Both the position numbers and the translations under genes were made by a program. Shown piece by piece: positions 7,398 through 64,000 of a DNA stretch of 64,000 nucleotides; the first letter of the stretch is position 1, and every line of letters starts with the position of its first letter. Source of the DNA: Patescibacteria group bacterium (GTDB taxonomy: Bacteria; Patescibacteriota; UBA1384; XYA2-FULL-43-10; CAINNR01); assembly GCA_041651295.1 (NCBI GenBank), contig JBAZJN010000001.1, positions 83,662-147,661 of the forward strand. Direction: 5' to 3'. A model generated the notes under the pieces. The model did not search any database, was not told the origin of the DNA, and saw only the letters and a program-made list of their open reading frames with translations.

Positions 7398-7448
7398 CGT
7401 TTTGATAATACCATAATATTTACAAACAATGTCGAATAAATTCGAGAC

Positions 7449-7479
7449 AAAAAACGGCCCGCCACATCGGCGTTCCGTG
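7449..7479 (-). terminator. intrinsic terminator of GC-rich cassette A
   Basis: Imperfect GC hairpin ACGGCCCGCC/GGCGTTCCGT followed by a T-run on the minus strand. Confidence 0.45.
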
Positions 7480-7602
7480 CTCTTGGTTTTTCCAACCCCT
7501 CTCGCTTGTGTTACCTCTCCGGCGGTGGTGACGTGACCCCTGACAGTGCGTCAGCGACAGCCGACATCAAGTATTCGGCGGGCGGGATGCCGATCAGTCG
7601 AT

Positions 7603-7779
7603 TCACGGCTGTCCGTCGAAGTAGATGATGATGTTGTAGTCGCCGCTGACACGGAAGTAGCCGATATAGCGCGACGCAGCTGACTTCGACATCCAGACAA
7701 CCGCGCAATTCGGGTGTCGAGCGATGAAATCAGCTAGCTCTACCCCTGCAACCTCCGAAAAACCGCCCTTTGAACTCAT
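7603..7779 (-). CDS. orphan small protein, 58 aa (cassette A, third ORF)
   Basis: Hand-translated MSSKGGFSEVAGVELADFIARHPNCAVVWMSKSAASRYIGYFRVSGDYNIIIYFDGQP; GGGGTGA SD 4 nt before ATG; below the ORF-track size cutoff. Confidence 0.4.
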   Translation of the reverse strand: MSSKGGFSEVAGVELADFIARHPNCAVVWMSKSAASRYIGYFRVSGDYNIIIYFDGQP

Positions 7780-7783
7780 GTTG

Positions 7784-7972
7784 TCACCCCAGTTCGTGAG
7801 CCATCTGGCTCAATGCGTTGTTTAGCGCGTCACTGATGAATTGCTTCACCTCCGGCAAGAAGGCGACAACCAATGTGACGATGGCTAGGAATATCACAAG
7901 GCAACTGATCTCGATCCGCTCCTCTCCTCTATTCCGACTCGCAGTCTGGTTATCCGTTACACCGTCACGCAT
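7784..7972 (-). CDS. orphan small membrane protein, 62 aa (cassette A, second ORF)
   Basis: GGGAGG SD 8 nt before ATG 7972; TM helix ISCLVIFLAIVTLVVAFL; GC-rich. Confidence 0.45.
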   Translation of the reverse strand: MRDGVTDNQTASRNRGEERIEISCLVIFLAIVTLVVAFLPEVKQFISDALNNALSQMAHELG

Positions 7973-7985
7973 ACCAGGACCTCCC

Positions 7986-8114
7986 TCAAAAGATGTCGGG
8001 TATCCGGACATTGAAGTCGGAATCGAACCATCGGACTATGGTGCCTAACCCACAGCCGGACTTGGGCGGCTGCAGTTCGCGGCTCTGACCATTATCAGCC
8101 ATGGGAGACATCAT
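7986..8114 (-). CDS. possible 42-aa ORF (cassette A, first ORF)
   Basis: AAAGGGGA then ATGATG; MMSPMADNGQSRELQPPKSGCGLGTIVRWFDSDFNVRIPDIF; weak support. Confidence 0.25.
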   Translation of the reverse strand: MMSPMADNGQSRELQPPKSGCGLGTIVRWFDSDFNVRIPDIF

Positions 8115-8129
8115 CCCCTTTCTGCCGCA

Positions 8130-8158
8130 AGTATAGTACAATATGTTGTTTTTATCAA
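8130..8158 (-). promoter_or_regulatory. sigma70-type promoter of cassette A
   Basis: TTGATA-17-TATACT on the minus strand. Confidence 0.45.
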
Positions 8159-8207
8159 TACCCAACCGGTATTTATTGCCTTACCCGGTAAGACCTCATT
8201 GAAATAG

Positions 8208-10469: not shown

Positions 10470-10963
10470 ATTTTCAATAAATAAAATTCCAACTCCGGAT
10501 GTAATTTATCGCCATCTTTAATCATTTTTTTCAATCGCGAGATCGAAAAATACTCGACTTTGTCCACATCTTCATTTTCTACTTCAATCGGATCTTTGTA
10601 AATCAATTTATAAAATCGGACAAATTTGTCAGTTTCTGCCGTCGAACTAAAATAGGGAAATTTTCCGATTTCGATTAGCCGGCCTTTGATACCTAGTTCT
10701 TCGGCTAGTTCCCGCCGTGCCGCTTGCAAATAATTCTCTCCAGCGAGAACATGACCGCCGGCCGCCGTGCTCCAGACGCCAGGGAGAAAATCAACTTTTT
10801 TCGATCGCAATTGCAATGCCATTTCGCCATTTTCGTTAAAAACCAAAACATGGACTATGCGATGACGAAGTTTTTCATCATAGATCTCACGTCGAGTCAC
10901 CGATTCCAAAACCCGATCTTTCTCGTCAACAACATCAATTAGTTCGTCTTTATTACTCATCAT
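10466..10963 (-). CDS. NUDIX hydrolase
   Basis: Nudix box GGHVLAGENYLQAARRELAEELGI. Confidence 0.85.
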   Translation of the reverse strand: MMSNKDELIDVVDEKDRVLESVTRREIYDEKLRHRIVHVLVFNENGEMALQLRSKKVDFLPGVWSTAAGGHVLAGENYLQAARRELAEELGIKGRLIEIGKFPYFSSTAETDKFVRFYKLIYKDPIEVENEDVDKVEYFSISRLKKMIKDGDKLHPELEFYLLKI

Positions 10964-10991
10964 TTACAAAAGTATCATATTTTGCTAGAAT
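10963..10991 (+). promoter_or_regulatory. promoter of cassette B
   Basis: TTTACA-17-TAGAAT with TG extension. Confidence 0.45.
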
Positions 10992-11026
10992 TTGCCCCAG
11001 ACTGAACTGAAAGCGAGGTGTTCGGC

Positions 11027-11590
11027 ATGCCGAACATTCGCCTAGCCGGGGCTGATGAAGCAAAAACCAAGGAAGTAGTTAAGATGCTACATCATCTGCC
11101 GGATGTAGTCATCGACAGGGTAGTTGTAACGCGTTATCTGCACCACCCGTGCATTAACAGGCCAATGGCTCAGATTGCCTGTAGCGACGAGGTGCCTCAG
11201 CGGCACCTCAAGCTGATCAGGCAGGCTGTGATGGTGGCTGGCGTCGAGATGCCACACAAGTGGCGTTATACGCCGCCGATGCCACTCTATCCTGCAACCG
11301 TTGCCTTCTGCTACGGACTTAGGGAAGAGCTGTGGAGTCTCTGCTTAACCGAGATCAGCGCTCTGCACTTTGAGCCAGTTCATGTCCCATCAGTCGTCTA
11401 CGACATGAACCTGAAATTCAGTCCATACGCCGAGGTCCGCGGCTTCTGGAGTCCTGAAGTGGCCAACGACATCTGCGTCGCCAGTGCCGCAGCCAAGCTC
11501 AAGAACTACATGGACGTCGAGATGTTCAGTGTCCGCGATGGTGAGATCAAGCTCAGTTTCTGGCTGAAGGGAGCGACAAGCTCACCATGA
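11027..11590 (+). CDS. orphan GC-rich protein, 187 aa (cassette B)
   Basis: AGGTG SD 7 nt before ATG 11027; visibly GC-rich; no recognised motif. Confidence 0.6.
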   Translation: MPNIRLAGADEAKTKEVVKMLHHLPDVVIDRVVVTRYLHHPCINRPMAQIACSDEVPQRHLKLIRQAVMVAGVEMPHKWRYTPPMPLYPATVAFCYGLREELWSLCLTEISALHFEPVHVPSVVYDMNLKFSPYAEVRGFWSPEVANDICVASAAAKLKNYMDVEMFSVRDGEIKLSFWLKGATSSP

Positions 11591-11606
11591 TACGACGAGA
11601 CCACAA

Positions 11607-11636
11607 ACGCCCCAGCGTACCGGGGCGTTATTTTTA
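11607..11636 (+). terminator. intrinsic terminator of cassette B
   Basis: ACGCCCC/GGGGCGT stem followed by a T-run. Confidence 0.7.
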
Positions 11637-11639
11637 TAT

Positions 11640-11704
11640 GTCATTCCCGCGAAAGTGGGAATCTACTAAACTATTCGTGGATCCCCGATCAGGTCGGGGA
11701 TGAC
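11640..11704. repeat. R1 nested-palindromic repeat, copy a
   Basis: GTCATTCCCGCGAAAGTGGGAATCTACTAAACTATTCGTGGATCCCCGATCAGGTCGGGGATGAC; supplies the last codons and stop of the 11689-12735 gene. Confidence 0.8.
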
Positions 11705-13408: not shown

Positions 13409-13438
13409 TTGACTAAAACAAAGGCTAAGTTATATAAT
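13409..13438 (+). promoter_or_regulatory. promoter of cassette C1
   Basis: TTGACT-18-TATAAT. Confidence 0.5.
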
Positions 13439-13469
13439 CGCGTTAGGACATCTGGATTGGAGGTGCACA

Positions 13470-13925
13470 TTGTCACAATCGCTAAGGTTTGTTGCCGGCA
13501 GTTATGACGAGCAGACGATGTGTATCATCGCCGACGTCCTCGACCAAGGCGGATTTGACAGTTTGTCCGGGATGCTTGGCCACGTGGATCATGGCCGAGG
13601 TCGCTGGCAAACGGCGCTGTACATCCGTCGTCGTGACGGCAGGATCGCCGTGATCGGATATCAGACTATGAGAAAAATCATCCGATTGCTGAGGGAAATA
13701 CCGCTGACATTCGATCTGGTCGTATCATGTCGCGATCTCCAGGGCACGCTTGACTTCCACTGGGCTAACGACATGGAACCGTTCAAACCCCCGATTGGGG
13801 AGGCAGATGACCCATTCTGGGACAGAGGACAATCAACTGACAGAAAACTGACACCGGAGATGCTTTCGAGGATCGCTGATGCCAGACGGGCATCAGGTGA
13901 TGGAGACCTGAATCCAGACCTATAG
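13470..13925 (+). CDS. orphan GC-rich protein, 151 aa (cassette C1)
   Basis: GGAGGTG SD then TTG start; GC-rich; no recognised motif. Confidence 0.55.
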   Translation: MSQSLRFVAGSYDEQTMCIIADVLDQGGFDSLSGMLGHVDHGRGRWQTALYIRRRDGRIAVIGYQTMRKIIRLLREIPLTFDLVVSCRDLQGTLDFHWANDMEPFKPPIGEADDPFWDRGQSTDRKLTPEMLSRIADARRASGDGDLNPDL

Positions 13926-13928
13926 AAC

Positions 13929-13958
13929 CGCCCTCGCATACCGCGCGGGCATTTTTTT
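13929..13958 (+). terminator. intrinsic terminator of cassette C1
   Basis: GCCCTCGC/GCGCGGGC stem followed by T7. Confidence 0.65.
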
Positions 13959-13975
13959 AACAAATATTTTTTGGA

Positions 13976-14012
13976 TAAAAAAACGGAACTCAAGGGGGTC
14001 TCAAGAGTTCCG
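13976..14012 (-). terminator. intrinsic terminator of cassette C2
   Basis: CGGAACTC/GAGTTCCG stem with a T-run on the minus strand. Confidence 0.65.
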
Positions 14013-14025
14013 AAACGGCTGTGAG

Positions 14026-14214
14026 CTACTGCGGGTTAGCTGCCCGCTGCTCGTACGGAGCGATGCTCCCTGTCAGTCTGTTGCCGACGATCACGGACAC
14101 TATCCTGCCGCTAGTCTGACAGATAAGCGCTAGCGGTTCGAACAGAAGTCCTTGTTCGGCCGGCAATGAAGCCGGTGTGCAACAGCACACCGTGATCACT
14201 GCGAGTAGCAGCAA
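14026..14214 (-). CDS. orphan small secreted or lipoprotein-like protein, 62 aa (cassette C2)
   Basis: GGGAGGTG SD 7 nt before TTG; hydrophobic N-terminus MLLLAVITVCCC. Confidence 0.45.
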   Translation of the reverse strand: MLLLAVITVCCCTPASLPAEQGLLFEPLALICQTSGRIVSVIVGNRLTGSIAPYEQRAANPQ

Positions 14215-14304
14215 AGCGTTTCACCTCCCTCCCGCGGGCCGTCGCAGCAAGATTCGCCCGGGTCTTGACCGGATTCTTCTCACTCGACTCCCTGCGACTT
14301 TTTG

Positions 14305-14333
14305 ATATTAGCATATACCTTATTTTTTTGCAA
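14305..14333 (-). promoter_or_regulatory. promoter of cassette C2
   Basis: TTGCAA-17-TAATAT on the minus strand. Confidence 0.45.
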
Positions 14334-14387
14334 ACAAGAAAATCCCCATGGATTTCTGAGCTCAAATATGATAAATTAAATTAGCAA

Positions 14388-15123: not shown

Positions 15124-15214
15124 GGTGGGATCGCATAGTTGGTCTAGTGCGCACGATTGGAAATCGTGTAGGGTCGCAAGATTCTCGAGGGTTCGAATCC
15201 CTCTCCCACCGCCA
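15124..15214 (+). tRNA. tRNA-Ser (anticodon GGA), CCA encoded
   Basis: Acceptor GGTGGGA/TCCCACC, anticodon stem CACGA/TCGTG with loop TTGGAAA, long variable arm, T-arm GAGGG-TTCGAAT-CCCTC, 3' GCCA. Confidence 0.9.
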
Positions 15215-15236
15215 TTGAAGAATAAATAAACATCAT

Positions 15237-15830
15237 ATGAAAAAAACTATAGCTTACGTAATATCGGGGATAATTCTCACAATATTTTCAGGCGCATTAT
15301 ATGATTTCGTTGTAAAACCTAACATATTTATGTTAGCTAAATGTTTAGTCAATTATGTTAATAGCTTCAATGACGAAACATATCTAATAATTGCGAAATC
15401 TTTCCACGAACAGTCGGCTAGTTCTCTTTGGATTACAACATTAATATCTTTAGCTTGGTTACTTTTGTGGCTTTCGATAGTACTTATTATTACTGGATAT
15501 TTCCGGCATTCAAAGTCACCAAATCGGATTTTAAAATATGTTGAATCAGTTCCAACAACAAAACTACGCTGGATAATGTTTGTTCTAAGTTGTCTCTTAT
15601 TTGCAATTTCCTTATTCGGTGCAGCACAGCACCAGTACATTAACGATGCAATAACTTATTATCAGCAACTCAGAGCTATAGATGCTCCATTTATCTCCGA
15701 AATTCAATTGAAAGAATATGACTCAAAATTTGCTCAAATCAAGAACAAATCGGATTATATTATAATAATTAATTCGCTTGAAGAGATCTCAGACACCAAC
15801 AAACAGACTCATCCAATTTTCCAACCATAA
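15237..15830 (+). CDS. membrane protein, unknown function
   Basis: Three or four TM helices; AT-rich like the backbone. Confidence 0.55.
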   Translation: MKKTIAYVISGIILTIFSGALYDFVVKPNIFMLAKCLVNYVNSFNDETYLIIAKSFHEQSASSLWITTLISLAWLLLWLSIVLIITGYFRHSKSPNRILKYVESVPTTKLRWIMFVLSCLLFAISLFGAAQHQYINDAITYYQQLRAIDAPFISEIQLKEYDSKFAQIKNKSDYIIIINSLEEISDTNKQTHPIFQP

Positions 15831-15863
15831 TTTATGGTAGAATAATATCAATCTTTTGCCATT

Positions 15864-15894
15864 AAAAAAACCGCTCATTTTCAGCGGATTTTTT
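15864..15894. terminator. bidirectional terminator
   Basis: A-run, CCGCT..AGCGG hairpin, T-run. Confidence 0.6.
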
Positions 15895-15898
15895 AATT

Positions 15899-15962
15899 AT
15901 CATCCCTAAAAAGTCGGGAAATTACTAAACTATTTTTGGATCCCCGCCTTCGCGAGGACGAC
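15899..15962. repeat. R1 repeat, degenerate copy b
   Basis: ATCATCCCTAAAAAGTCGGGAAATTACTAAACTATTTTTGGATCCCCGCCTTCGCGAGGACGAC. Confidence 0.6.
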
Positions 15963-15966
15963 CGCT

Positions 15967-18321
15967 TTAGCGGTCTATAATATTCTGCATCATTAAGCGT
16001 TTTTCGACAGAGGCGATGATTTTGCGGGTTTGGATTGCAACGTCTGGTGTGACCGAAACCGAAGTTGCTCCGTTTCTAACCATCAGCTCGGTAAATTCAG
16101 GATAAATTGATGGTGCCTGGCCACAAACTGACACAGTCACATTATGTTGCCGGCAAGTCTTAATTACATATTCAACCGAAAGCGAAATCGCTTCGTCCCT
16201 TTCATCAAATGATTTGGCCAAATTTTGATTATCACGATCACAGCCTAAAGTTAATTGCGTTAAATCATTGGTTCCTAAGGAAACTCCGTCGATGCCGACC
16301 GAGATAAATTTCTCAAGCAAAATCACATTTGATGGAACTTCAACCATCATCCAAAGCTTAAAATCGGGACCGCGATACAAACCTGCCGCCTCCACCAATT
16401 CCTTAACTTTTTGCATTTCTGAAACCGTACGGACAAATGGAATCATTAGGTGCAAATTCACTAAGTCCATCTTATTACGAACGATTTTCAACGCTTCAAG
16501 TTCGAGGTTAAATACATCCGGATTGGTGATATAACGTAGGGCGCCGCGCATACCGATCATTGGGTTGTCTTCCTCGCCTTCGTATTTGTCGCCGCCTTTT
16601 AGTCCTCGATATTCGTTGGTTTTGAAGTCAGTTGTTCGATAAATAACCGGTCTGGGCGCAAATGCTCCGGCAATAGTGCCTATCCCCTGAGCTAATTTTG
16701 TGGTAAACTCTTCGCCCCTACCGGATTCAATCATCGCCCGAGGGTGTTCCCCGATTCCAGCCATCATAAACTCGGCTCGGAGCAGCCCGACGCCATCCAC
16801 AGGCAACGCAGCAAACTCCGCGGCTTTTTCCGGCTCGGCCAAATTCAAATAAACCTTTGTTCCGGTTATTGGGATCTCTTCTGTCAGAGCCAATCCGCCG
16901 ACGGATTGTGATTTTGTCTCAATTCTCCGCGGATCGGCAGCCGATAATTTTACGGCTCCTTTATAAACAACACCTTTTGCGCCGTCAACAGTTACGACTT
17001 GACCGGTTTTTAATTTGGCTGTAGCCGTTCCCGTTCCAACAACACAGGGAATGCCAAGTTCGCGAGAGACTATTGCCGCATGACAAGTCCGGCCGCCGGT
17101 ATCAGTGATAATCCCTTTTGCCCTTTTCATCGCCGGAACAAAATCTGGGGTTGTCATTTCAGTAACCAAAATATCACCCTCTTGAATCAGATCGTTTTGT
17201 TCTCGACTGTGAATAATTTTTACCGGGCCAACCGCCGAGCCAAGTGAGGCAGCGGCACCGTGCAGAATAACTTCGGCCTGGTTTTTTTCAATAGATCCTG
17301 CGTCTCCCTGAACTTGTGACTTTCGACTTTCAACTTTCGACTTATCTAGTGTTGTTATTGGCCGTGACTGTACCATGTATATTTTATTACCGGCAATAGC
17401 AAACTCAGTATCTTGTGGTGAATTGTAATGTTCTTCAATTTTCTTACCAAGTTTAGCCAACTCTATGACTTGAGCATCAGTAATTTTTTGATCTTTTCTA
17501 TCAGCCATTGGAACTGCGACGTGTTTGTCTCCGCCACCTGCTGCTCGAATTATCTGCCAAGGTTGGCTATTAACCTCTTTAGCGACAATTGCTTCTGTTG
17601 TTTTATCAACAATGTAGCGATCTGGAGTGACTGAGCCTGAAACGATTGCCTCACCTAAACCAAAACCAGCCTCAATAATAATTTTGTTTGTGTCACCAGT
17701 GACAGGATCAACAGTGAACATAATACCGGATTTTTCTGATTGAACCATTATTTGGACCGGGACAGCCAAGCCAACTTTCATTTGATCATATTTATTGATT
17801 GCTCGATAATAAATTGCTCTAGCTTCAAAAAGTGATGCGTAGCATTTCTGCAGGGCAGCAACTACTTCAGCTGGTCCCTTAGTGTTTAAAAATGTCGCTT
17901 GCTGACCAGCAAAAGAATCATCTGCGCCATCTTCAGCAGTCGCTGACGAACGAACAGCAACTTCAACATCACCAAGTTCTCGATAATTTTTTTCAACTTC
18001 TAAAGCGATCTCTGCTGGCATTTTAGCCGAAAGGATATGACGCTTAATTACATTTGATAGTGAATTTAGTTTTTTTGAATCTTCCGGGTTAATGCCTCTT
18101 AATGCCTGTGCAATTGCAGGGCCAATCCCAGTTTTTTCCAAAAAGTAATTATATCCATCGACTGTAACAATAAAGCCATTGGGGACAGGAAAACCACCAC
18201 GAGTTAACTCACCTAAATTCGCACCTTTACCGCCGACAGTAGCTGTATCATCTTTACCAACATCTTTGAACCAGAGAACAAATGGTTTGTGATTTATCTT
18301 CTTTGCTATAATTCCCTCCAA
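15967..18321 (-). CDS. ppsA: phosphoenolpyruvate synthase (pyruvate, water dikinase)
   Basis: N-terminal PPDK_N-like domain, phosphohistidine motif GGRTCHAAIVSRELGIPCVVG, C-terminal PEP-utilising TIM barrel. Confidence 0.9.
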   Translation of the reverse strand: MEGIIAKKINHKPFVLWFKDVGKDDTATVGGKGANLGELTRGGFPVPNGFIVTVDGYNYFLEKTGIGPAIAQALRGINPEDSKKLNSLSNVIKRHILSAKMPAEIALEVEKNYRELGDVEVAVRSSATAEDGADDSFAGQQATFLNTKGPAEVVAALQKCYASLFEARAIYYRAINKYDQMKVGLAVPVQIMVQSEKSGIMFTVDPVTGDTNKIIIEAGFGLGEAIVSGSVTPDRYIVDKTTEAIVAKEVNSQPWQIIRAAGGGDKHVAVPMADRKDQKITDAQVIELAKLGKKIEEHYNSPQDTEFAIAGNKIYMVQSRPITTLDKSKVESRKSQVQGDAGSIEKNQAEVILHGAAASLGSAVGPVKIIHSREQNDLIQEGDILVTEMTTPDFVPAMKRAKGIITDTGGRTCHAAIVSRELGIPCVVGTGTATAKLKTGQVVTVDGAKGVVYKGAVKLSAADPRRIETKSQSVGGLALTEEIPITGTKVYLNLAEPEKAAEFAALPVDGVGLLRAEFMMAGIGEHPRAMIESGRGEEFTTKLAQGIGTIAGAFAPRPVIYRTTDFKTNEYRGLKGGDKYEGEEDNPMIGMRGALRYITNPDVFNLELEALKIVRNKMDLVNLHLMIPFVRTVSEMQKVKELVEAAGLYRGPDFKLWMMVEVPSNVILLEKFISVGIDGVSLGTNDLTQLTLGCDRDNQNLAKSFDERDEAISLSVEYVIKTCRQHNVTVSVCGQAPSIYPEFTELMVRNGATSVSVTPDVAIQTRKIIASVEKRLMMQNIIDR
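17318..17343. repeat. in-frame ACTTTCGACTTT-type repeat inside ppsA
   Basis: GACTTTCGACTTTCAACTTTCGACTT encodes KSKVESRKS in an interdomain linker; related motifs at 30029-30051 and 35869-35902. Confidence 0.5.
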
Positions 18322-18329
18322 AAAAATGT

Positions 18330-18599
18330 TTATTTTGCCAAAAGCCCTAACTTACGCTCAACAATTCGCAGTCGATGATCAATCTGATCGGTTCTGGTCA
18401 TAAAAGCTCTGTTAATATCAGCCAGATCAGAAATTTCCCGATTAATATTTTTCTCAACAGTTTTAAATCTCTCACCCATTTCATTCATTATCTGCTGCTT
18501 TGTATTATCAATTTTATCCGACAGATTTTTGGTAACATCATCGGTCGAAAATTCAACTATTTGTTTGATTTGCTTTAAATCATCTTTAGTTAAAGCCAT
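18330..18599 (-). CDS. small coiled-coil protein, unknown function
   Basis: 89-aa ORF, charged heptad-like sequence. Confidence 0.5.
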   Translation of the reverse strand: MALTKDDLKQIKQIVEFSTDDVTKNLSDKIDNTKQQIMNEMGERFKTVEKNINREISDLADINRAFMTRTDQIDHRLRIVERKLGLLAK

Positions 18600-18628
18600 T
18601 CTAGCTCCTTAGAACCATTTTACACCGA

Positions 18629-19078: not shown

Positions 19079-19152
19079 AAGAAAATTATATCACTTCAGT
19101 TTTGTTATTACTTCTGATATCTTGTAAACAGGGTTAAGGAGGCGATATCAAC

Positions 19153-19251
19153 ATGGCGAAATACATTTGTCCAATATGCCATCATGGTTATCTGGTTTCA
19201 GACCATCCCAAAGGTTGTCCGTACTGTGGATACAAAGCATTCCGGCGCTAA
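19153..19251 (+). CDS. 32-aa zinc-ribbon mini-protein
   Basis: AAGGAGG SD; MAKYICPICHHGYLVSDHPKGCPYCGYKAFRR with CPxC..CPxC; followed by a terminator. Confidence 0.5.
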   Translation: MAKYICPICHHGYLVSDHPKGCPYCGYKAFRR

Positions 19252-19268
19252 AAGCGCCGGCTTTTTTT
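19242..19268 (+). terminator. intrinsic terminator
   Basis: CCGGCGCT/AGCGCCGG stem followed by T7. Confidence 0.7.
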
Positions 19269-19307
19269 ATTTGTTTAGAAATTAGGTCAATTAGAAATTT
19301 TGCCGAA

Positions 19308-20354: not shown

Positions 20355-20369
20355 GAAACTCCTAAATTA

Positions 20370-53212: not shown

Positions 53213-53245
53213 AAAAAAAGCGGCGATGACCCATAGGTCTCGCCG
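53213..53245 (-). terminator. intrinsic terminator of cassette I2
   Basis: CGGCGA/TCGCCG stem with T-run on the minus strand. Confidence 0.6.
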
Positions 53246-53269
53246 TACTCTCCCCCTATGACTTGGTCG

Positions 53270-53551
53270 TTACTTGACCAGGCTGTTGTTGTTCACGTCA
53301 GTGACCTCGCTGAACTGGCCGGCCAGCAAACCGAATGAGCTCTCGGACTGGCCCTCCCTCAGAGTTGCGAAGCCGATCAGACCACGAGGTTGACCGTCAT
53401 CCGACTTGCGCCGGAAAATCCGACCATTCTCGACTACGATCTTTCCGTCCTTCACCTTGATGCCTTCCGGTAGCTTCGGAGTCGCGCCAGAAGCCAGCTT
53501 GATGACATACGAACCATGGTGGTAGATGTCATATTCCATCTTCCTGGACAT
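53270..53551 (-). CDS. orphan GC-rich protein, 93 aa (cassette I2)
   Basis: GGGAGG SD 9 nt before ATG 53551; no recognised motif. Confidence 0.55.
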   Translation of the reverse strand: MSRKMEYDIYHHGSYVIKLASGATPKLPEGIKVKDGKIVVENGRIFRRKSDDGQPRGLIGFATLREGQSESSFGLLAGQFSEVTDVNNNSLVK

Positions 53552-53586
53552 GTTTCTCTGCCTCCCTCGATTAGTGCTCCAAAACA

Positions 53587-53615
53587 TATATATCACAAAA
53601 AAACTCGGATAACAA
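53587..53615 (-). promoter_or_regulatory. promoter of cassette I2
   Basis: TTGTTA-17-TATATA on the minus strand, right after the I1 terminator hairpin CGGAGC/GCTCCG. Confidence 0.45.
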
Positions 53616-53628
53616 AAAAACGGAGCGA

Positions 53629-54240
53629 CTAGGCTCCGCCGGACTCGCCGGATTCATAGAATACTTCCCCTTCGCGATACCCCCAGTTATGCAGTTCAAG
53701 GCGCAGCAGGTCAGACTTCTGGATCATGACAGCGCAGTTCATGCCCTTGTAGCTGCGTCTGACAGACCGCAGCAAGATCAGGCCGTGGTATGGCCAGATC
53801 GCGCCGTCTTCGACCGTCAACACGTTGTCGGAGATGTCGACGCACGGCGGAATGTTCATGAAGTTCGTACCGGGGCGGAAGTGGGCCCTGTAACCACCAA
53901 TGAAGCTCTCGGGCTGGTTTGACCATCCATATTCCGCATACTCCCGAACCGCCTGGCCTCGATAGACATGATTGACCCAGACTGGGCTGCCGTCAAACTC
54001 GCTGACGGTCGCGACGCGCCGGATGTCGATGCCGCCAAACATGTACGGCTGGAACAGCATGATGTCAGCGCAGTCGTAGTGATACAACAAACAGTTCGGA
54101 AGCTCAACCTCAGTGTCGGAGATCCAGCGACCGTTTTTGACATTCGGACGAGGGATCCCGTCAATGATCTGTAGCCGGAAGTTGCCTTCCTTGGTAAAAG
54201 TCAGACCGGGGTTGCGGAAGAACTCTTCTGTGGCTTCCAT
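53629..54240 (-). CDS. orphan GC-rich protein, 203 aa (cassette I1)
   Basis: GGAGG SD 6 nt before ATG 54240; no recognised motif. Confidence 0.6.
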   Translation of the reverse strand: MEATEEFFRNPGLTFTKEGNFRLQIIDGIPRPNVKNGRWISDTEVELPNCLLYHYDCADIMLFQPYMFGGIDIRRVATVSEFDGSPVWVNHVYRGQAVREYAEYGWSNQPESFIGGYRAHFRPGTNFMNIPPCVDISDNVLTVEDGAIWPYHGLILLRSVRRSYKGMNCAVMIQKSDLLRLELHNWGYREGEVFYESGESGGA

Positions 54241-54269
54241 GCAATGCCTCCGTAGATTCGACGCTCTTG

Positions 54270-54298
54270 AGATTATCACGTTTTTGGACTTTCGTCAA
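54270..54298 (-). promoter_or_regulatory. promoter of cassette I1
   Basis: TTGACG-17-TAATCT on the minus strand. Confidence 0.45.
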
Positions 54299-54300
54299 TC

Positions 54301-54336
54301 AAAAAATCCCCTTTGATTTCTCGCTGGGGATTTTTT
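54301..54336. terminator. bidirectional terminator
   Basis: A6, TCCCC..GGGGA hairpin, T6. Confidence 0.55.
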
Positions 54337-56746: not shown

Positions 56747-56783
56747 AAAAAAACAAGGGCTCGCCTACTGGCTTGCCCTCTTG
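56747..56783 (-). terminator. intrinsic terminator of cassette J
   Basis: AAGGGC..GCCCT hairpin with T-run on the minus strand. Confidence 0.5.
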
Positions 56784-56805
56784 GACCCTGTTGGGAGGTG
56801 ACCGA

Positions 56806-57294
56806 TTAGGTCACCATTGATCGCGGGCTCGTTACGAAGTCGTACGCTCGACGCCGGGTGTCATCAGGCAGAGACATGTAGTTACCCAGTTCACAGATCA
56901 GCCCGGGATCTCTTAAGCTGCAACTGAATTGTCGGGCCAGATCGATAGTCCCTTCCGGACCATCAATCGATGGAGTAATGTATTCCACGCAGTCAGGATG
57001 TTTGAACCAAACCCTATGCGTCCCGTAGATCATCCAGTTCCGCAGCTCCATGCTAGCGCCCGGATATACCAGCTTCCCATTGCGACCGTTGAGCGGCCAA
57101 CCGTAGATGCCGACACCGAGACGAGTGGCAGCTATCACCATCATATCATGCAGCAGGTCATCGGTCAGGTTCAACTCGCGGGAAAGATCGCGAACCTCAC
57201 GCTCGGTTCGGCATTCGGGGTGATTCACGAACTGCTGCAGCACAAACGCGATGACATCTAGCGCCAGAAAAGCAGACTTGATTTGCCCACTCAT
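56806..57294 (-). CDS. orphan GC-rich protein, 162 aa (cassette J)
   Basis: GTGAGGTG SD 6 nt before ATG 57294; no recognised motif. Confidence 0.55.
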   Translation of the reverse strand: MSGQIKSAFLALDVIAFVLQQFVNHPECRTEREVRDLSRELNLTDDLLHDMMVIAATRLGVGIYGWPLNGRNGKLVYPGASMELRNWMIYGTHRVWFKHPDCVEYITPSIDGPEGTIDLARQFSCSLRDPGLICELGNYMSLPDDTRRRAYDFVTSPRSMVT

Positions 57295-57322
57295 AGCTTT
57301 CACCTCACGGGTTTCTGCTTCC

Positions 57323-57351
57323 AAAATATCTAATTGATAAAATTTAGTCAA
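57323..57351 (-). promoter_or_regulatory. possible promoter of cassette J
   Basis: TTGACT-17-TATTTT on the minus strand. Confidence 0.35.
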
Positions 57352-58208: not shown

Positions 58209-58237
58209 TTGCAAATTTTTTAAATTTCTGTTATTAT
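58209..58237 (+). promoter_or_regulatory. promoter of cassette K1
   Basis: TTGCAA-17-TATTAT. Confidence 0.45.
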
Positions 58238-58273
58238 TCTGTTCATCATATTCCGATTCTGAGGAGGCTCGAT

Positions 58274-58420
58274 GTGGGTTTGAATCTTACAGTTTTAGAT
58301 GGACAAAGGCGTTCTGATCACCGTTTCGCCTCCCGATTCCTGTTCTGGAGCATCATCGTCGTTATCACTATAGTCTGCTTCGTTATACTGCACTACGCAG
58401 GGGGAGATCCGTCCGGGTGA
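58274..58420 (+). CDS. 48-aa hydrophobic peptide (cassette K1)
   Basis: GGAGG SD 6 nt before GTG; ..RFLFWSIIVVITIVCFVILHYAGGDPSG. Confidence 0.4.
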   Translation: MGLNLTVLDGQRRSDHRFASRFLFWSIIVVITIVCFVILHYAGGDPSG

Positions 58421-58440
58421 ACACTTCACCCGTTTTTTAT
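58415..58440 (+). terminator. intrinsic terminator of cassette K1
   Basis: GGGTGAA/TTCACCC stem followed by T6. Confidence 0.65.
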
Positions 58441-58468
58441 TGACAAATTTAGATTTATGTGATATTAT
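58440..58468 (+). promoter_or_regulatory. promoter of cassette K2
   Basis: TTGACA-17-TATTAT. Confidence 0.5.
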
Positions 58469-58512
58469 CTTAGAATTTCCGCCGCGGATATCCTACGCCA
58501 AGAGGTGCTGTG

Positions 58513-59136
58513 ATGAAAAGTAAGTTGAGTAGTTTCCTGACCGGGCTTGGCGTTGTAGCCCTGGTCATCGTGATTGTTGGCAGTATGGGGTATGCAGTGC
58601 TCTTCGCGCCCGACTATCACGATGACCCCGAGTACCAGGCCAACCAACCCGACCCGCTCCAGGCCGATACCGAGACGCAGACCTACCGCGAGCAATTGTC
58701 CCGTCAGGATGAGATGGATCGCTGGGCCAGCGAGAATCACGTGGAGACTGAGATCTGGGGCAAGACCCAATCCCCGGACAAAAGGTGGACGGCGTGGAAC
58801 GTGAGCATCACAAACTTCGAGGGCTACGCCCAGGTCGGGATCCCTCGCACCGAGATCCACATCAAGTCATCCGATGGCACCGAGCACCAGCTCGATGAGG
58901 CTAACGAGGCCGGCCGCCTTCCATGGCTGTCGGAGCCGGTTTTCTCAGCAGACAGCAAAAGGGTCGCCGTGTTCGAGCGCGACGAGCTCGGCACCGGCCG
59001 AATCCTCATCTGGACGCTGGAAACCGGCGAGCTCAAGGTCGTCAGCCCGAATCGCGGCGACCTCGAGCGAATCTACAGCGACAAGGAAGGGGTCTTCCAT
59101 ATAGGCCCCGAAAAGCACGACTACTCCACCGATTAG
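58513..59136 (+). CDS. orphan GC-rich membrane-anchored protein, 207 aa (cassette K2)
   Basis: AGAGGTG SD; N-terminal TM helix FLTGLGVVALVIVIVGSMGYAVLF; beta-rich ectodomain. Confidence 0.6.
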   Translation: MKSKLSSFLTGLGVVALVIVIVGSMGYAVLFAPDYHDDPEYQANQPDPLQADTETQTYREQLSRQDEMDRWASENHVETEIWGKTQSPDKRWTAWNVSITNFEGYAQVGIPRTEIHIKSSDGTEHQLDEANEAGRLPWLSEPVFSADSKRVAVFERDELGTGRILIWTLETGELKVVSPNRGDLERIYSDKEGVFHIGPEKHDYSTD

Positions 59137-59157
59137 GGGTGGAATGAAGAACTGGAA

Positions 59158-59195
59158 GCGGGCGTGGCCGATACTGGCCCCGCCCGATTTTTTTA
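59158..59195 (+). terminator. intrinsic terminator of cassette K2
   Basis: GCGGGCG..CGCCCG stem followed by T7. Confidence 0.65.
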
Positions 59196-59196
59196 T

Positions 59197-59225
59197 TTGA
59201 CAATGCGAAAAGCGAATGATATATA
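59197..59225 (+). promoter_or_regulatory. promoter of the candidate ncRNA unit K3
   Basis: TTGACA-17-TATATA. Confidence 0.5.
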
Positions 59226-59231
59226 TTACTT

Positions 59232-59622
59232 ACGTAGCTGACGTGTGGTCAATACCGTTAAGACTATGTGCCCAGCCGCAAAACCTACCGGCCCACGTGA
59301 GCCGGAACAAATAGGTATTCCCATTTAGGGTGTGTACAGCCCAAGTGGGTCCCGGCCTAGGGTTCTAGTCACCAGCATCCATGCTGGTTCGGCGATCTCA
59401 TCAGCTGCTACTGACTTGTCTCGCGCCCGATGTGCAGGTCAAAAGACCACCGTTGTTGGCAGACGTGCCGGTGATACCGGAACTTCGCCCCGGTCGGTCT
59501 GCACGCGGTCACCGCGAGCAAGCACTCATTGTGGCGTCCCGCCACAAACATACCGTTGAGTCGTTGTTTCACACTCATCACGGATCACTCCGACACCCCT
59601 CCGGGTTGTCGGAGCTTTTTTA
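59232..59622 (+). ncRNA. candidate structured non-coding RNA of about 390 nt (unknown family)
   Basis: Lies between a consensus promoter and the CTCCGAC/GTCGGAG+T6 terminator. No SD-preceded ORF. Many GC hairpins plus long-range CTCGCG/CGCGAG and GTGCAG/CTGCAC pairings. Confidence 0.4.
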
Positions 59623-61633: not shown

Positions 61634-61662
61634 TTGACAAACTACGATTGATATGCTATAAT
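61634..61662 (+). promoter_or_regulatory. promoter of the candidate sRNA unit L
   Basis: TTGACA-17-TATAAT (perfect consensus). Confidence 0.55.
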
Positions 61663-61668
61663 GCTTGT

Positions 61669-61792
61669 TGTCATTCAGTTGACATATTAAACAAGAAGGA
61701 GGTGCCTTTTACCCGGCAATTACGCTGGCAGGAGGGCACCCGTGCATCCGCCTTAAATCTGGTCGTGGCCGTTGGCCGCGGCCACTTTTTTT
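61669..61792 (+). ncRNA. candidate small RNA of about 125 nt (unknown family)
   Basis: GGTGCC..GGCACC stem, then GTGGCCG/CGGCCAC+T7 terminator; no start codon at a usable distance from AAGGAGG; no downstream same-strand gene. Confidence 0.35.
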
Positions 61793-61897
61793 ATTCCAAG
61801 ATAGCGACACGGCTTCAAGCCGTGGATGAAGCGATCTAATAGACCGGCCGAAGGCCATACAAAGCGGAACAGTACCACGGGCTATGCCCGTGAGTAT

Positions 61898-62029
61898 CTA
61901 TTTCGAGCTCAAAATCCGGTTCAATAAATCTATTTGAGACTTCTCATCCAACACAACTCCGGACTCTAAAAGCCGCTTGAATTCATCAGCCAAGTCCGTT
62001 TTTTCTTCATTAGACTGTTTTTCGTCCAT
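61898..62029 (-). CDS. possible 43-aa ORF overlapping the end of the membrane-protein gene
   Basis: Hand-translated MDEKQSNEEKTDLADEFKRLLESGVVLDEKSQIDLLNRILSSK; no clear SD. Confidence 0.2.
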   Translation of the reverse strand: MDEKQSNEEKTDLADEFKRLLESGVVLDEKSQIDLLNRILSSK

Positions 62030-63560
62030 AAAATTTATTTAGAACCAGATAAATCGCAATCAGGACGAGAACAATTCCGGCAATGATGGCGCGAACAGTG
62101 ATGTTGTAAGGATTTTCGATCAGTGCCGAAGCCAGAACCGACAGAACCACTGCTAAAAACACTTCTTCGTCGGCAGTTCTGGTCAAAAGATTAACTAATA
62201 TCGCTCCGGCAAGCGCACCGGCAAGATAAACCGGCCCCAACGTCACCCCAGTTACAAGAACGATCAGCACCACAGCTGACACTTTGAGCAGGTTATTTTT
62301 GAACACCTCCAAATTTGAGAGATACGTCAGAGTTCCACCAAGAATTAAACCGGCAATAATTTTCTGATTTCCTAAATCAAGACTGTACTTTTTCATTTGA
62401 GCAACGAAATAAGTTAAAAATCCAAGCGCCAAAAGCGAAACTAAGGTGGCAACAAAACTTCCTGTTCTAATCTCTGGAACCCTTTCGGCAGTTAAAACCG
62501 ACGGTGCTTCGCTCAGTTCGGCAGTTAAAGCGATGGTTTCAGCATTTTTCATAATCCCGGAATAACTGGCGAAAATGGCTGCAATTACGGCTGATGCCGA
62601 AAATCCGACCAGCAAAAAGACCATACCAACCGTTCCGAAGAAATAATTAGAAGCTAAAAGCAGAAGCCCGACCGATATTGCCGGGATGATTTTGTTGACC
62701 TTATGAAAAGTTAAATTGAGAATGCTAAAAACATATCCGATTGCCAAAGAGGCGGAAACCAATATCAGATTATAGCTTACACCGAAGAAATGCTTCTGAA
62801 CAGAATAATAGAAAACCACCAACAAAAAGAGCGTAAATAAGCAAAGCCCGTAAAATATTGCCGAGCTCTTGATAAATTTTTTGGCTAAAACCGATGTCAG
62901 TACGGCAGAAAGCGCGGCAAAAACAATTGTGGTTGCAGAAATTCCGGCTGCGAACAGCTTATAGTTGGCGGCATTTTGTAAATAACTACCAAAAACGGCG
63001 AAAGACAGAGATATGGTCGCAACAACCAAAAGCGCGTATTTGGACTTGCCGCGCGGCCAAAATATCGAAGTGATTATTAAAGCCAAAACCAGTGAAAGCA
63101 GCGTCGCCGTGGTCGAGAAGAGATATTGGATGCCAAGGCCAAAGACGATCGCGACAGCTGTTATTAATATTGATCTAAAAACACTTGCAGAGTAGATAGA
63201 CCGGAAAACTGTTTTTTGCCCGCTTCGAGAGAGCTCCACTGCCCGAGCTCCGGAATTAACCGCAAGATTAGTCTGATAATAATCGAGAAGTGGAAAAATT
63301 ACGGCTGCAGCCAGGAAAACCGCCGCGCTCTGCCAGCCGAGAGCATAGAGGATCGCGACTAATAGTACAACTGCAACCATTGAATAGTTCTTGAGAGCCA
63401 GTTTATAATCCGATCTCGTTTCCTTCAAAACAGCTTTGTGGGCGTCGGAGATCTTTTTTGAGCTGGTTTTTACCTGCCTTTGCCGCAGAGAAAATATTAG
63501 AGAAATGATGATAGCCAGAGCCGAGATGGAGAAAATTCCATAGAGGACAAGCTTTTCCAT
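62010..63560 (-). CDS. polytopic membrane protein (about 14 TM helices), unknown function
   Basis: 516 aa, hydrophobic throughout; no transporter signature I can name. Confidence 0.65.
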   Translation of the reverse strand: MEKLVLYGIFSISALAIIISLIFSLRQRQVKTSSKKISDAHKAVLKETRSDYKLALKNYSMVAVVLLVAILYALGWQSAAVFLAAAVIFPLLDYYQTNLAVNSGARAVELSRSGQKTVFRSIYSASVFRSILITAVAIVFGLGIQYLFSTTATLLSLVLALIITSIFWPRGKSKYALLVVATISLSFAVFGSYLQNAANYKLFAAGISATTIVFAALSAVLTSVLAKKFIKSSAIFYGLCLFTLFLLVVFYYSVQKHFFGVSYNLILVSASLAIGYVFSILNLTFHKVNKIIPAISVGLLLLASNYFFGTVGMVFLLVGFSASAVIAAIFASYSGIMKNAETIALTAELSEAPSVLTAERVPEIRTGSFVATLVSLLALGFLTYFVAQMKKYSLDLGNQKIIAGLILGGTLTYLSNLEVFKNNLLKVSAVVLIVLVTGVTLGPVYLAGALAGAILVNLLTRTADEEVFLAVVLSVLASALIENPYNITVRAIIAGIVLVLIAIYLVLNKFYGRKTV

Positions 63561-63660
63561 AGAATCCTTTCGTTATTACTTTATCTAAAGCTAGGCTAGC
63601 AGAAAAAAACAAGCTCAGCAATAGGCGTTTCAGGCTTCAGAACGAAATCTGATTTTATCA

Positions 63661-63689
63661 TTGACAAACAAGCTCAAGTGTGCTAGTAT
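63661..63689 (+). promoter_or_regulatory. promoter of cassette M
   Basis: TTGACA-17-TAGTAT. Confidence 0.5.
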
Positions 63690-63782
63690 AAATCGTTACG
63701 TCGTAGGACATTTGGCATGATTCACGCTTTGCCATATTGAGCGGTGGTGCGTGCCAGCCAATACACCAAGGAGATAACCCGG

Positions 63783-63926
63783 ATGACCAAGACATCGACG
63801 TTAAGGGTCGGCCAGTTCGTGCTGGCCGAAATCATGGAAGGCTTTCCGGTCGACGTTTACGAGGGCGAGACACTCGTGATCGCCGAACCAGTCGCCAGCC
63901 GCTTGCTGAACCGCCTTCGCCTGTAG
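63783..63926 (+). CDS. orphan GC-rich small protein, 47 aa (cassette M)
   Basis: AAGGAG SD 9 nt before ATG 63783; MTKTSTLRVGQFVLAEIMEGFPVDVYEGETLVIAEPVASRLLNRLRL. Confidence 0.45.
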   Translation: MTKTSTLRVGQFVLAEIMEGFPVDVYEGETLVIAEPVASRLLNRLRL

Positions 63927-64000
63927 TTCACGCCAGAAGTCAGTCTGTCTCTCCTCCCATGAGCGAGAGGCATACAACTTCCGGAAATGCCGCGAATCTT

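Follow-up and report, generated by a model that had tools for sequence, protein, structure and literature searches.

The 64,000-nucleotide (nt) stretch of DNA analysed here, hereafter the window (contig JBAZJN010000001.1 of assembly GCA_041651295.1, positions 83,662 to 147,661 of the forward strand), comes from a Patescibacteria group bacterium and raises the question of why a region of ordinary core genes is interrupted again and again by short GC-rich blocks that look like self-contained expression cassettes. Patescibacteria, or the Candidate Phyla Radiation (CPR), represent a large and mostly uncultivated share of bacterial diversity, with tiny genomes and hosts that are largely unknown. 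Our answer, to which we assign a probability of roughly 0.58, is that the blocks are islets of the flexible genome that occupy insertion hot spots, having been acquired by transfer and passed between strains through recombination. As moron-like islets on the chromosome of a CPR bacterium they are of a known kind, and their puzzling property is the stationary GC content of one family, b2.

The blocks, which the original prediction had picked out by eye, are real. The 15 of them total 10,331 nt (16% of the window) and reach 46-60% GC, against 41.3% elsewhere (GC 0.413 over the remaining 53,669 nt), and their codon usage also differs. The GC content is 0.538 at 7440-8160, 0.534 at 10963-11636, 0.525 at 13409-14340, 0.525 at 23373-23818, 0.528 at 26672-27179, 0.463 at 31384-31640, 0.479 at 35531-35843, 0.545 at 38409-39499, 0.601 at 43833-45475, 0.534 at 53213-54336, 0.524 at 56747-57351, 0.542 at 58209-59195, 0.545 at 59197-59622, 0.500 at 61634-61897 and 0.535 from 63661 to the window end, the enrichment being weak in three blocks (31384-31640, 35531-35843 and 61634-61897). 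The GC content at third codon positions (GC3) is 0.66±0.08 for the 21 open reading frames (ORFs) of the blocks (minimum 0.47) and 0.39±0.05 for the 45 backbone genes (maximum 0.52, in an ankyrin gene), and these distributions scarcely overlap (Mann-Whitney p=1e-10). The second codon position has the lowest GC content in both sets, which is the pattern expected of genuine coding sequence. Codon choice in the block ORFs is moved toward CTG, ATC, AAG, GAG, TTC and AAC, and amino-acid usage differs as well, with 3.3% Lys and 6.8% Arg against 8.4% and 4.2% in the backbone. Furthermore, the mean GC content of 14 cassettes is about 0.24 in the promoter and reaches 0.43-0.59 directly past the -10 box, so that the GC-rich domain corresponds to the entire transcription unit including the untranslated regions (UTRs) and not to the ORF alone. 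In practice, the bimodality of GC3 offers a cheap way to list accessory genes in such metagenome-assembled genomes (MAGs).

Promoter and terminator scans together with the reading of every block divide the 15 blocks into some 19 distinct transcription units. Two of the blocks (3 and 8) are convergent cassette pairs, and block 10 and the block at 58209-59195 are tandem pairs; the initial list, right as to the blocks, had counted two cassettes as one in each of these four. The layout that it gave (promoter, Shine-Dalgarno sequence, cargo, terminator) is accurate, and one to three ORFs or none is what most blocks contain, block 1 having four small ones. For 15 of the ~19 cassettes the scan lists a sigma-70-like promoter match at the start, in many cases with a TG-extended -10 box; the other four have weaker matches recognised by eye. 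GGAGG-type ribosome-binding sites (RBSs) stand ahead of the ORF starts, and a GC-stem/T-run terminator closes each of the 18 cassettes that end within the window (13 by scan, 5 by eye). The promoters are of the type TTGACA-17-TGnTAtAAT, and the same TGnTAtAAT box is found ahead of native genes, PRC and rpsF among them. Both promoters and terminators match the type that the recipient itself uses, which corrects the picture of wholly foreign cassettes. Eleven of the 19 cassettes are antisense to both neighbours, where most blocks had been said to be antisense, and the two examples cited, between holA and polA and between ftsK and rnj, are correct. Read from these signals, the cassettes are autonomous units, independent of the neighbouring operons, and we infer that they are expressed. 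Ten predicted ORFs were looked up and all ten occur in the protein collection, nine with an NCBI MAG counterpart, in some cases with another start codon. Comparison of the cassettes with one another found no similarity, as had been noticed by eye, and no paralogy among them.

The cargo comprises a thyA-tmk pair, approximately 17 fast-evolving orphan small proteins and two structured RNAs devoid of ORFs. One membrane-like hydrophobic segment is present in eight orphans, three of them the micro-ORF products b6, b8b and b12a (31-48 aa, one segment each, with no Rfam match, and considered as possible peptides of type I toxin-antitoxin systems, in which an antisense RNA overlaps or adjoins the peptide gene); the orphans are probably envelope or surface proteins. 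None of the 19 block ORFs other than thyA and tmk matched Pfam, PHROGs or PADLOC, where only thyA, tmk and the ankyrin gene gave matches. Likewise, 18 concatenated orphan ORFs gave no tblastn match in 50,697 phage records, nor in plasmid records, and IMG/VR scans returned no relative of b12b, b8a or b11. The searches of large protein databases covered b2 and b10a among the orphans, the latter being without a homologue in a set of 1.84 billion cluster representatives.

The evidence for hot spots comes from the comparison with relatives. Scanning metagenomes with the VanW protein yielded a graded series of related contigs (designated by L numbers), from 95% down to 46% identity; a scan with GroEL, a protein too conserved for this purpose, found no close relatives, its best matches being from Actinomycetota and Chloroflexota at 62-66% identity. 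Relatives with as little as 47% VanW identity retain the gene order VanW-NTase-groES-groEL-PRC-efp-ssb-S6-ychF, and it is the gaps that vary. The groEL-PRC gap measures 84-218 bp in L100-L109 and 1313 bp here; the NTase-groES gap of L093 (144 bp) and the VanW-NTase gap of L096 (301 bp) compare with 1.0-1.4 kb here. These short matching gaps indicate that the cassettes were inserted between genes which lie side by side in the relatives. Indeed, b10a, b11 and b12b have no homologue in the relatives except in L091 (95% VanW identity), which keeps just the 3' end of b12b, at 84% nucleotide identity, and b11 is absent from L092-L109.

The same gaps hold other cargo elsewhere. In L093 the groEL-PRC gap contains a 512-bp b10b-like cassette, gaps of L092 contain AT-typical orphans and one of L096 a 112-aa ORF, and L091 has other content at cassettes 13 and 14. 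At the flank of the o516 homologue, the site of cassette 15 here, L093 and L100 carry islands of 2.6-3.6 kb with 59-60% GC and unrelated orphan lipoproteins, and L137 shows the same interleaving, with GC3 of 0.37-0.40 in the backbone and 0.60-0.75 in accessory genes. Such different cargo at the same gaps identifies these gaps as hot spots, and the blocks, as had been proposed for verification, prove to be presence/absence or replacement polymorphisms at conserved synteny breaks. When L003, which is of the same species, is aligned with the window, the flanks are 97-100% identical and identity declines gradually to ~56% over the 3' half of b2 and the last part of the gene next to it. Conserved flanks, variable cargo and mosaic identity are together the signature of flexible islets at hot spots that are exchanged by homologous recombination.

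For one cassette the origin of the cargo can be traced. The closest homologues of thyA (84-85% amino-acid and 79.5-80.7% nucleotide identity) are located on diderm contigs of 64-68% GC, in a conserved context LptFG-ACPS-YkuD-thyA-PAP2-guaA, and more distant members of the family are labelled Armatimonadota. With a GC3 of 0.84, against 0.80-0.91 in the donors and 0.39 in the backbone, the gene is donor-like and not recipient-like. Two Patescibacteria relatives, L137 and L139, have thyA beside ychF with GC3 of 0.75 and 0.71, and neighbour-joining groups the three Patescibacteria copies together in just 0.3% of 300 bootstraps. These comparisons show, at the level of sequence, that thyA was acquired from a GC-rich diderm clade by horizontal transfer. 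The adjacent ankyrin gene is accessory too and occupies the same locus in L137, with a synonymous divergence (pS) of 0.46 from that contig against 0.72-0.78 for backbone genes. The non-monophyly of thyA and the low pS of the ankyrin gene imply that the arrival or replacement of accessory genes at this locus came later than the split of the lineages. The thyA-tmk pair for dTMP synthesis would plausibly be useful to a cell with poor nucleotide synthesis. The transfer of thyA is a concrete and datable inter-phylum one that nominates a possible partner organism. The suggestion of repeated acquisition from a high-GC donor thus holds for thyA, but most cassettes have no donor in the databases searched.

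The b2 family tells a different story about age. A protein search found only four homologues of b2, all in a Patescibacteria context, and in five Patescibacteria lineages the gene has one and the same backbone gene, o348, as its neighbour. Alleles of b2 share 53-77% identity, with a near-saturated pS of 0.60-0.73 and a ratio of nonsynonymous to synonymous rates (dN/dS) of 0.13-0.28, values that mark b2 as a real gene under purifying selection. Its GC3 is 0.63-0.68 in all five lineages and 0.35-0.44 in the flanks. Among the lineage-specific third-position changes, 42 go from G/C to A/T (S>W) and 36 in the opposite direction (W>S), an S>W fraction of 0.54. Since polarisation by simple parsimony was biased from common to rare in a backbone control, it was replaced by explicit simulation of both models. 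Under stationarity at GC3 0.66 the simulated S>W fraction is 0.56 (5-95% range 0.43-0.67), whereas amelioration toward 0.39 gives 0.73-0.77 and requires that GC3 was 0.9 or higher in the ancestor; at the divergence consistent with the data, the observed value has P<=0.003, and amelioration is rejected for b2. This result applies to the b2 family alone and to a simple F81-type model on all third positions.

Two further cassettes persist at their loci. b10b has an orthologue of the same length and with the same RBS, 36% identical, in the groEL-PRC gap of L093/L094 (GC3 0.61), and b12a has a positional orthologue in the NTase-VanW gap of L096/L097 (E=3.5e-4) and a possible one in L108/L111 (E=0.047). 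Together with the stationarity of b2, this persistence signifies that some cassettes, judged from their alleles, are old residents whose GC-richness is maintained. The cause may be GC-biased gene conversion at recombining loci, selection on the transcript or continual exchange with a GC-rich reservoir not yet sampled. For units such as b2, the alternative origin offered at first, a lineage-specific family of accessory micro-genes, fits better than recent acquisition. The stationary GC of b2 contradicts the usual view that imports ameliorate to the composition of the recipient; if the pattern were general, compositional methods would misdate transfers, and strong GC-biased conversion or selection in bacteria would be indicated.

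We can thus outline how the islets may have formed. Genes would enter by horizontal transfer from a GC-richer pool, which is demonstrated for thyA and suggested for the rest by codon and amino-acid usage; insertions would survive only in the intergenic hot spots of a compact genome; and units would be replaced, lost or exchanged among related strains via homologous recombination in the conserved flanks, as the mosaic identity suggests. Each unit, equipped with a recipient-type promoter, a GGAGG RBS and an intrinsic terminator, would run independently of the neighbouring operons and often antisense to them. The foreign origin of the orphans, their exchange by flank recombination and their envelope localisation are what we infer from these data. 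The original prediction knew of no described mechanism for such an arrangement; this is not supported, as islet hot spots exchanged through conserved flanks are well known and islands have been reported in Patescibacteria (PMC12455944). That study (mSystems 2025) describes individually transferred genes and genomic islands in Patescibacteria MAGs, up to 13% of genome length, with donors that include non-Patescibacteria phyla and functions that include metabolic complements. It has no mention of promoters or of intergenic placement, and neither the cassette architecture nor persistent GC-richness is part of its account; it also assumes that old transfers become invisible through amelioration, an assumption that the stationarity of b2 contradicts. 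A limited literature search met with neither the cassette architecture nor the density nor the compositional stationarity seen here.

Several observations weigh against this account. The compositional border falls at the transcription start and the signals are of native type, features that the mere import of foreign DNA leaves unaccounted for. b2 shows no drift toward AT despite near-saturated synonymous divergence, and b10b is old yet still GC-rich. No donor was found for the orphans: b10a is without homologues, those of b2 all lie in Patescibacteria context, and the phage, plasmid, IMG/VR (three orphans), PHROGs, PADLOC and Pfam searches returned no match. The presence of AT-typical orphans in some gaps of the relatives makes the GC-rich set a subset of the flexible genome and not its definition. 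Finally, neither insertion machinery nor target duplications were found in the window.

As an alternative, the majority of cassettes may be native, lineage-specific genes at a separate, higher GC equilibrium kept up by a local process; selection on the whole transcript and, at hot spots of recombination, GC-biased gene conversion are the candidates. The balance of changes in b2 (S>W 42 versus W>S 36, at GC3 ~0.66), the occurrence of b2, b10b and b12a at the same locus in several lineages, the lack of homologues outside the clade for the orphans searched (b2 and b10a), the native type of promoters, RBSs and terminators, the extent of the GC domain over the UTRs, and the location of b2 within a visibly recombining mosaic region are all in favour of this proposal. 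On the other side, thyA is foreign, the shift from Lys to Arg is the one seen in proteins of GC-rich genomes, and the highly expressed native genes groEL, efp, rpsF and ssb are not GC-rich. The 27-point gap in GC3 lies far beyond the gene-conversion effects known from bacteria, and stationarity is known for one family under a simple model. Selection for RNA structure was considered and set aside, as four mRNA cassettes fold at z -0.4 to -2.5, no better than expected; structural RNA was similarly rejected as a general cause of GC-richness, most blocks holding ORFs with the coding pattern of GC across the three codon positions. We therefore regard a native origin of most cassettes as unlikely, if far from negligible. 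The broader statement that accessory units of this Patescibacteria family form a class at their own equilibrium (GC3 ~0.66 against 0.39 in the core) from start to terminator, UTRs and RNA genes included, over times that saturate synonymous sites, is in our opinion equally doubtful; if true, it would need a strong locus-specific GC-biased process or continual refreshment from the GC-rich pool of a partner, for example host DNA. A hint of such a stable partner is that a single GC-rich diderm clade would have supplied thyA to this locus more than once; if this were so, the composition and phylogeny of cassettes could name the hosts of uncultivated CPR bacteria.

A dedicated system mobilising the cassettes, either an integron-like recombinase or an element targeting terminators or REP-like hairpins, with the hairpins as recombination sites, would account for the tight packing of the tandem arrays 12a-12b-13 and 10a-10b, in which the terminator T-run abuts the next -35 box, and for the promoter of b10a, which begins directly past the groEL terminator. 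The -10 region TGTGCTAGTATAAA is identical in cassettes 8a and 15, and seven of ten GTCATT-type REP-like hairpin elements lie within ~120 nt of a cassette border (blocks 2, 4, 10 and 11), the others being elsewhere. But hairpins and cassettes are both confined to scarce intergenic space, and the identity around b2 decays gradually and not sharply. Pfam and NCBIfam scans of the window ORFs gave no match to an integrase, transposase or reverse transcriptase, and a search of the cassette borders within the window found no border repeats, no conserved attC-like motif and no target-site duplication, which bears out the initial remark that no integrase, attC-like site or prophage context is present. 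The reverse transcriptase and the template/variable repeat pair of a diversity-generating retroelement are likewise absent from the window, and the divergence in b2 takes in half of the gene together with its flank. A mobilising system is, in view of this, quite improbable.

We give slightly less credit still to the reading that the cassettes are true phage morons, left over from a decayed prophage or defence island. The architecture fits the definition of a moron, phages commonly carry thyA and tmk as auxiliary genes, and the former matches the PHROGs thymidylate synthase family; yet the same Pfam and NCBIfam scans detected no phage structural, integrase or repressor family, the orphans are without counterparts in the phage resources listed above (50,697 records for 18 orphans, IMG/VR for three, PHROGs and PADLOC), the closest relatives of thyA are chromosomal and in a conserved cellular context, and the units are spread through 57 kb of core genes. 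Lastly, a chimeric assembly interleaving reads of AT-rich and GC-rich organisms, which the source (a MEGAHIT metagenome contig) and the sharp compositional borders might suggest, can be dismissed, since SRR8542065 as assembled in Logan matches 15126-23922 at 100% identity, cassette 4 (with b4 called as the same gene) and both its junctions included, contigs from other samples have cassettes 2, 3, 14 and 15, together with the 12b 3' end, in the same flanking context at 84-100% identity, the ten cassette proteins looked up occur on 170-174 kb contigs from several independent sources (NCBI, JGI, ENA, Logan), the borders coincide exactly with promoters and terminators with the ORFs intact, and the pattern recurs in the relatives L093, L100, L137 and L139; the junctions are thus reproduced in independent assemblies and in other samples.

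Having preferred transferred and recombining islets at hot spots, we describe the individual units in their order along the window. Cassette 1 (7460-8158, minus strand; promoter 8158-8130, terminator 7472-7460) encodes b1a (7986-8114, 42 aa), b1b (7784-7972, 62 aa, with a membrane-like segment), b1c (7603-7779, 58 aa) and b1d (7511-7606, 31 aa, with a GTGA start/stop overlap), at ORF GC3 of 0.65-0.69. The tRNA-like string GGTTCGATTCC inside b1a was considered as a tRNA and rejected, as it lies within the ORF and neither ARAGORN nor Rfam gives a call. Cassette 2 (10963-11636, plus strand) has the promoter TTTACA-17-TAGAAT (TG-extended), the 187-aa orphan b2 (11027-11590) and a terminator at 11606-11629. 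In L134 (972-1606) the b2 family is split into two ORFs of 82 and 107 aa, with the downstream o348 kept and a gene of the 2-thiouracil desulfurase family as upstream neighbour instead of NUDIX. An AlphaFold2 model of b2 from a 5-sequence alignment reached a pLDDT of 54, and Foldseek gave only insignificant tautomerase/MIF-like matches (E>=0.02).

Cassette 3a (13409-13956, plus strand; promoter TTGACT-18-TATAAT, terminator 13933-13949) encodes the 151-aa orphan b3a (13470-13925), which is 96.7% identical at the amino-acid level in L003/L004. It converges with cassette 3b (13975-14340, minus strand; promoter and terminator by eye), encoding b3b (14026-14214, 62 aa, hydrophobic N-terminus). Cassette 4 (23373-23818, plus strand), between ftsK and rnj and antisense to both, contains the 104-aa orphan b4 (23439-23753). 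Cassette 5 (26672-27179, plus strand; terminator 27152-27170), between udg and pnp, encodes b5 (26736-27128, 130 aa, with an N-terminal membrane-like segment). Cassette 6 (31384-31640, plus strand; GC 0.46) consists of the hydrophobic 31-aa micro-ORF b6 (31444-31539) and a GC-rich 3' UTR ending in a terminator at 31616-31630. Cassette 7 (35531-35843, plus strand; terminator 35817-35834), between holA and polA and antisense to both, encodes b7 (35591-35815, 74 aa), which is called as a gene on the ENA contig. Cassette 8a (38409-39068, plus strand; terminator 39041-39061) encodes the 194-aa orphan b8a (38457-39041), the start codon of which is uncertain and which is missing from the gene calls on that contig. 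The convergent cassette 8b (39105-39499, minus strand) encodes the micro-ORF b8b (39320-39436, 38 aa, membrane-like segment), followed by a GC-rich 3' UTR of ~190 nt and a terminator at 39127-39111.

Cassette 9 (43833-45475, minus strand; promoter 45472-45445) contains the thyA-family gene (44505-45335, 276 aa, GC3 0.84) and, on the same strand, tmk (43872-44501, 209 aa, GC3 0.67). The thyA 5' leader (45336-45444, minus strand) has a terminator-like hairpin with a T-run (45438-45422) between promoter and start codon, which may be an attenuator or a riboswitch-like control; the leader has no Rfam match. The ankyrin-repeat gene (45588-46226, minus strand, GC3 0.52) stands beside this cassette and probably belongs with block 9. 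Cassette 10a (53619-54336, minus strand; terminator 53640-53619), directly downstream of the groEL terminator, encodes b10a (53629-54240, 203 aa), and cassette 10b (53213-53610, minus strand) encodes b10b (53270-53551, 93 aa). Cassette 11 (56747-57351, minus strand), between groES and the nucleotidyltransferase (NTase) gene, encodes the 162-aa orphan b11 (56806-57294). Cassette 12a (58209-58438, plus strand; terminator 58414-58432), mildly GC-rich (0.50), carries the micro-ORF b12a (58274-58420, 48 aa, membrane-like segment), and cassette 12b (58440-59195, plus strand; promoter TTGACA-17-TATTAT, TG-extended) encodes b12b (58513-59136, 207 aa, N-terminal membrane-like segment, GC3 0.78). The extracellular part of b12b has motifs reminiscent, by eye, of TolB-type PD40 beta-propeller repeats ('FSADSKRVAVFERDELGTGRILIWTLETGE'), for which there is no Pfam match. 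In L091 a CTP synthase-like gene (pyrG, 5847-7454) lies between VanW and cassette 12; it is absent here, where cassette 13 is found instead. Cassette 15 (63661-64000, plus strand; promoter TTGACA-17-TAGTAT) encodes b15 (63783-63926, 47 aa), and its GC-rich island crosses the window end; in L091 it is ~0.7 kb longer and reaches the end of that contig.

Two cassettes have no convincing ORF. Cassette 13 (59197-59622, plus strand) has a promoter, ~390 nt of GC-rich sequence without an RBS-led ORF and a terminator at 59599-59614; its RNA (59232-59620, plus strand) folds with z=-5.37 relative to shuffled controls, only the 3' 90-100 nt are conserved in L091, and it is a candidate novel structured RNA. 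Cassette 14 (61634-61792, plus strand) has a perfect TTGACA-17-TATAAT promoter, a predicted transcript of ~124 nt and a terminator at 61760-61784. Its RNA (61669-61792, plus strand) has a folding z-score of -4.58, with an SD-like GGAGGUG sequestered in a hairpin. In L091 (2784-3208) the cassette 14 promoter and leader run into ~400 nt of a different GC-rich sequence and then a terminator, and the unit here is a candidate small RNA or else the remnant of a longer cassette such as that one. Neither cassette has an Rfam match at the gathering threshold or at E<=1; across the window, the same thresholds gave only a tRNA-Ser and a sub-threshold match of an sRNA model on a REP-like element.

Several repeat families were noted in the course of this analysis. 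A two-hairpin family (ATTCCCGCGAAAGTGGGAAT ... GGATCCCCG...) occurs at 11631-11700, 15890-15946, 32119-32180, 43097-43139 and 47997-48060, with two exact or near-exact 24-mers where none is expected by chance. At 47997-48060 a REP-like palindromic element (CGTCATTCCCGCGAAGGTGGGAATC...GGATCCCCGGGTCAAGCCCGAGGACGACA) lies in frame within ychF (47352-48464) and codes for 'RHSREGGNLLFVDPRVKPEDD', within a loop that three relatives have in shorter or different form, in the manner of the Rickettsia palindromic elements found inside genes; the sub-threshold Rfam match of this element is to FtrB. A second set of hairpins ('GTCATTGCGAG...' or 'GTCATTTCGA...') is found at 53117, 53204, 54409, 23828, 23934 and 56635 and flanks cassettes 4, 10 and 11. 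An exact 32-nt direct repeat (AAAAGTGTTACAAAAATGATAGATTTGTAACA) is present at 46194-46225 and 46235-46266, with starts 41 nt apart, between the ankyrin gene and fic, and its copies, each with the palindrome TGTTACA...TGTAACA, look like an operator. Finally, a shared element of ~70-100 nt at 31240-31340, 37168-37268 and 25821-25890 (83% identity between two copies, the third being inverted) stands directly upstream of genes for a DHH/RecJ-like protein, a 5'-3' exonuclease and RNase J, and may provide nucleic-acid-processing genes with a common leader or regulatory element.

According to domain scans of the ORFs, the backbone into which the cassettes are set consists of ordinary bacterial core genes: those for a P-type ATPase, RpoD, DnaG, a NUDIX hydrolase, rubrerythrin, PEP synthase, RecX, RecA, RodZ and FtsK, then RNase J, a family-4 UDG, PNPase, a DHH/DHHA1 protein, S20, a signal peptidase, HolA and a split PolA, and further YchF, S6, SSB, EF-P, GroES/EL and the VanW protein. 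Window proteins are named 'MAG ... Patescibacteria group bacterium' at NCBI (locus tags WC451_) and are also present on the 170-kb MEGAHIT contig k141_3043208 (ENA ERZ27247363). PolA is split into genes for a polymerase domain (429 aa) and a 5'-3' exonuclease (365 aa), at 35881-37170 and 37269-38366 on the minus strand, and the domain scan detected no 3'-5' exonuclease domain in either. The S6 protein (50212-50985, plus strand) has 257 aa, of which residues 4-90 only form the S6 domain, and its long C-terminal extension is also found in relatives, at 59-67% identity. The sole tRNA of the window, a tRNA-Ser (15124-15214; ARAGORN and Rfam), lies away from the block borders.

Even a core replication and repair region of this chromosome is thus peppered with accessory genes predicted to be individually expressed, mostly small, probably envelope-type orphans together with a nucleotide-synthesis pair, and the cassette genes are candidates for functions in the interaction with hosts or with phages. 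As to known systems, the cassettes are functionally closest to phage morons. A moron, in the concept of Hendrix and colleagues, consists of one or more extra genes with their own promoter and terminator, placed between conserved genes, differing from them in composition and variable in presence. The cassettes share with morons their own promoter and terminator, insertion between genes that are adjacent in relatives, a differing composition and presence/absence variation, but they stand among chromosomal housekeeping genes without a prophage, number ~19 in 57 kb, consist in some cases only of micro-ORFs or RNAs and include at least one family that is old and stationary.

They resemble the hot-spot genomic islets of the pangenome literature in their conserved synteny, variable gap cargo, mosaic identity and independence from an integrase, and depart from them in being very small (0.2-1.6 kb), dense and complete transcription units with host-type signals. 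Their GC content is also uniformly raised, whereas accessory and orphan genes are usually AT-richer than their genome. A classical genomic island, with its size of >10 kb, tRNA, integrase and repeats, differs from these units of 0.16-1.6 kb, which have no border tRNA and no flanking direct repeats. Integron cassettes carry attC sites with conserved R''/R' cores and are usually promoterless. Like them, the units described here contain small, mostly orphan and unrelated ORFs, are bounded by hairpins and turn over rapidly; unlike them, they have no intI, attI or attC consensus in the window, possess their own promoters and terminators, are dispersed in both orientations and end in 3' hairpins that are canonical terminators with T-runs and not attC. 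GC-biased gene conversion (Lassalle et al.) would have to act here, if it is the cause, with an effect far exceeding anything known to have been reported. The amelioration model of Lawrence and Ochman agrees, in the form of partial amelioration, with the GC3 of the Patescibacteria thyA copies (0.71-0.84), in the lower part of the donor range of 0.80-0.91, and disagrees with b2, which shows no net drift to AT.

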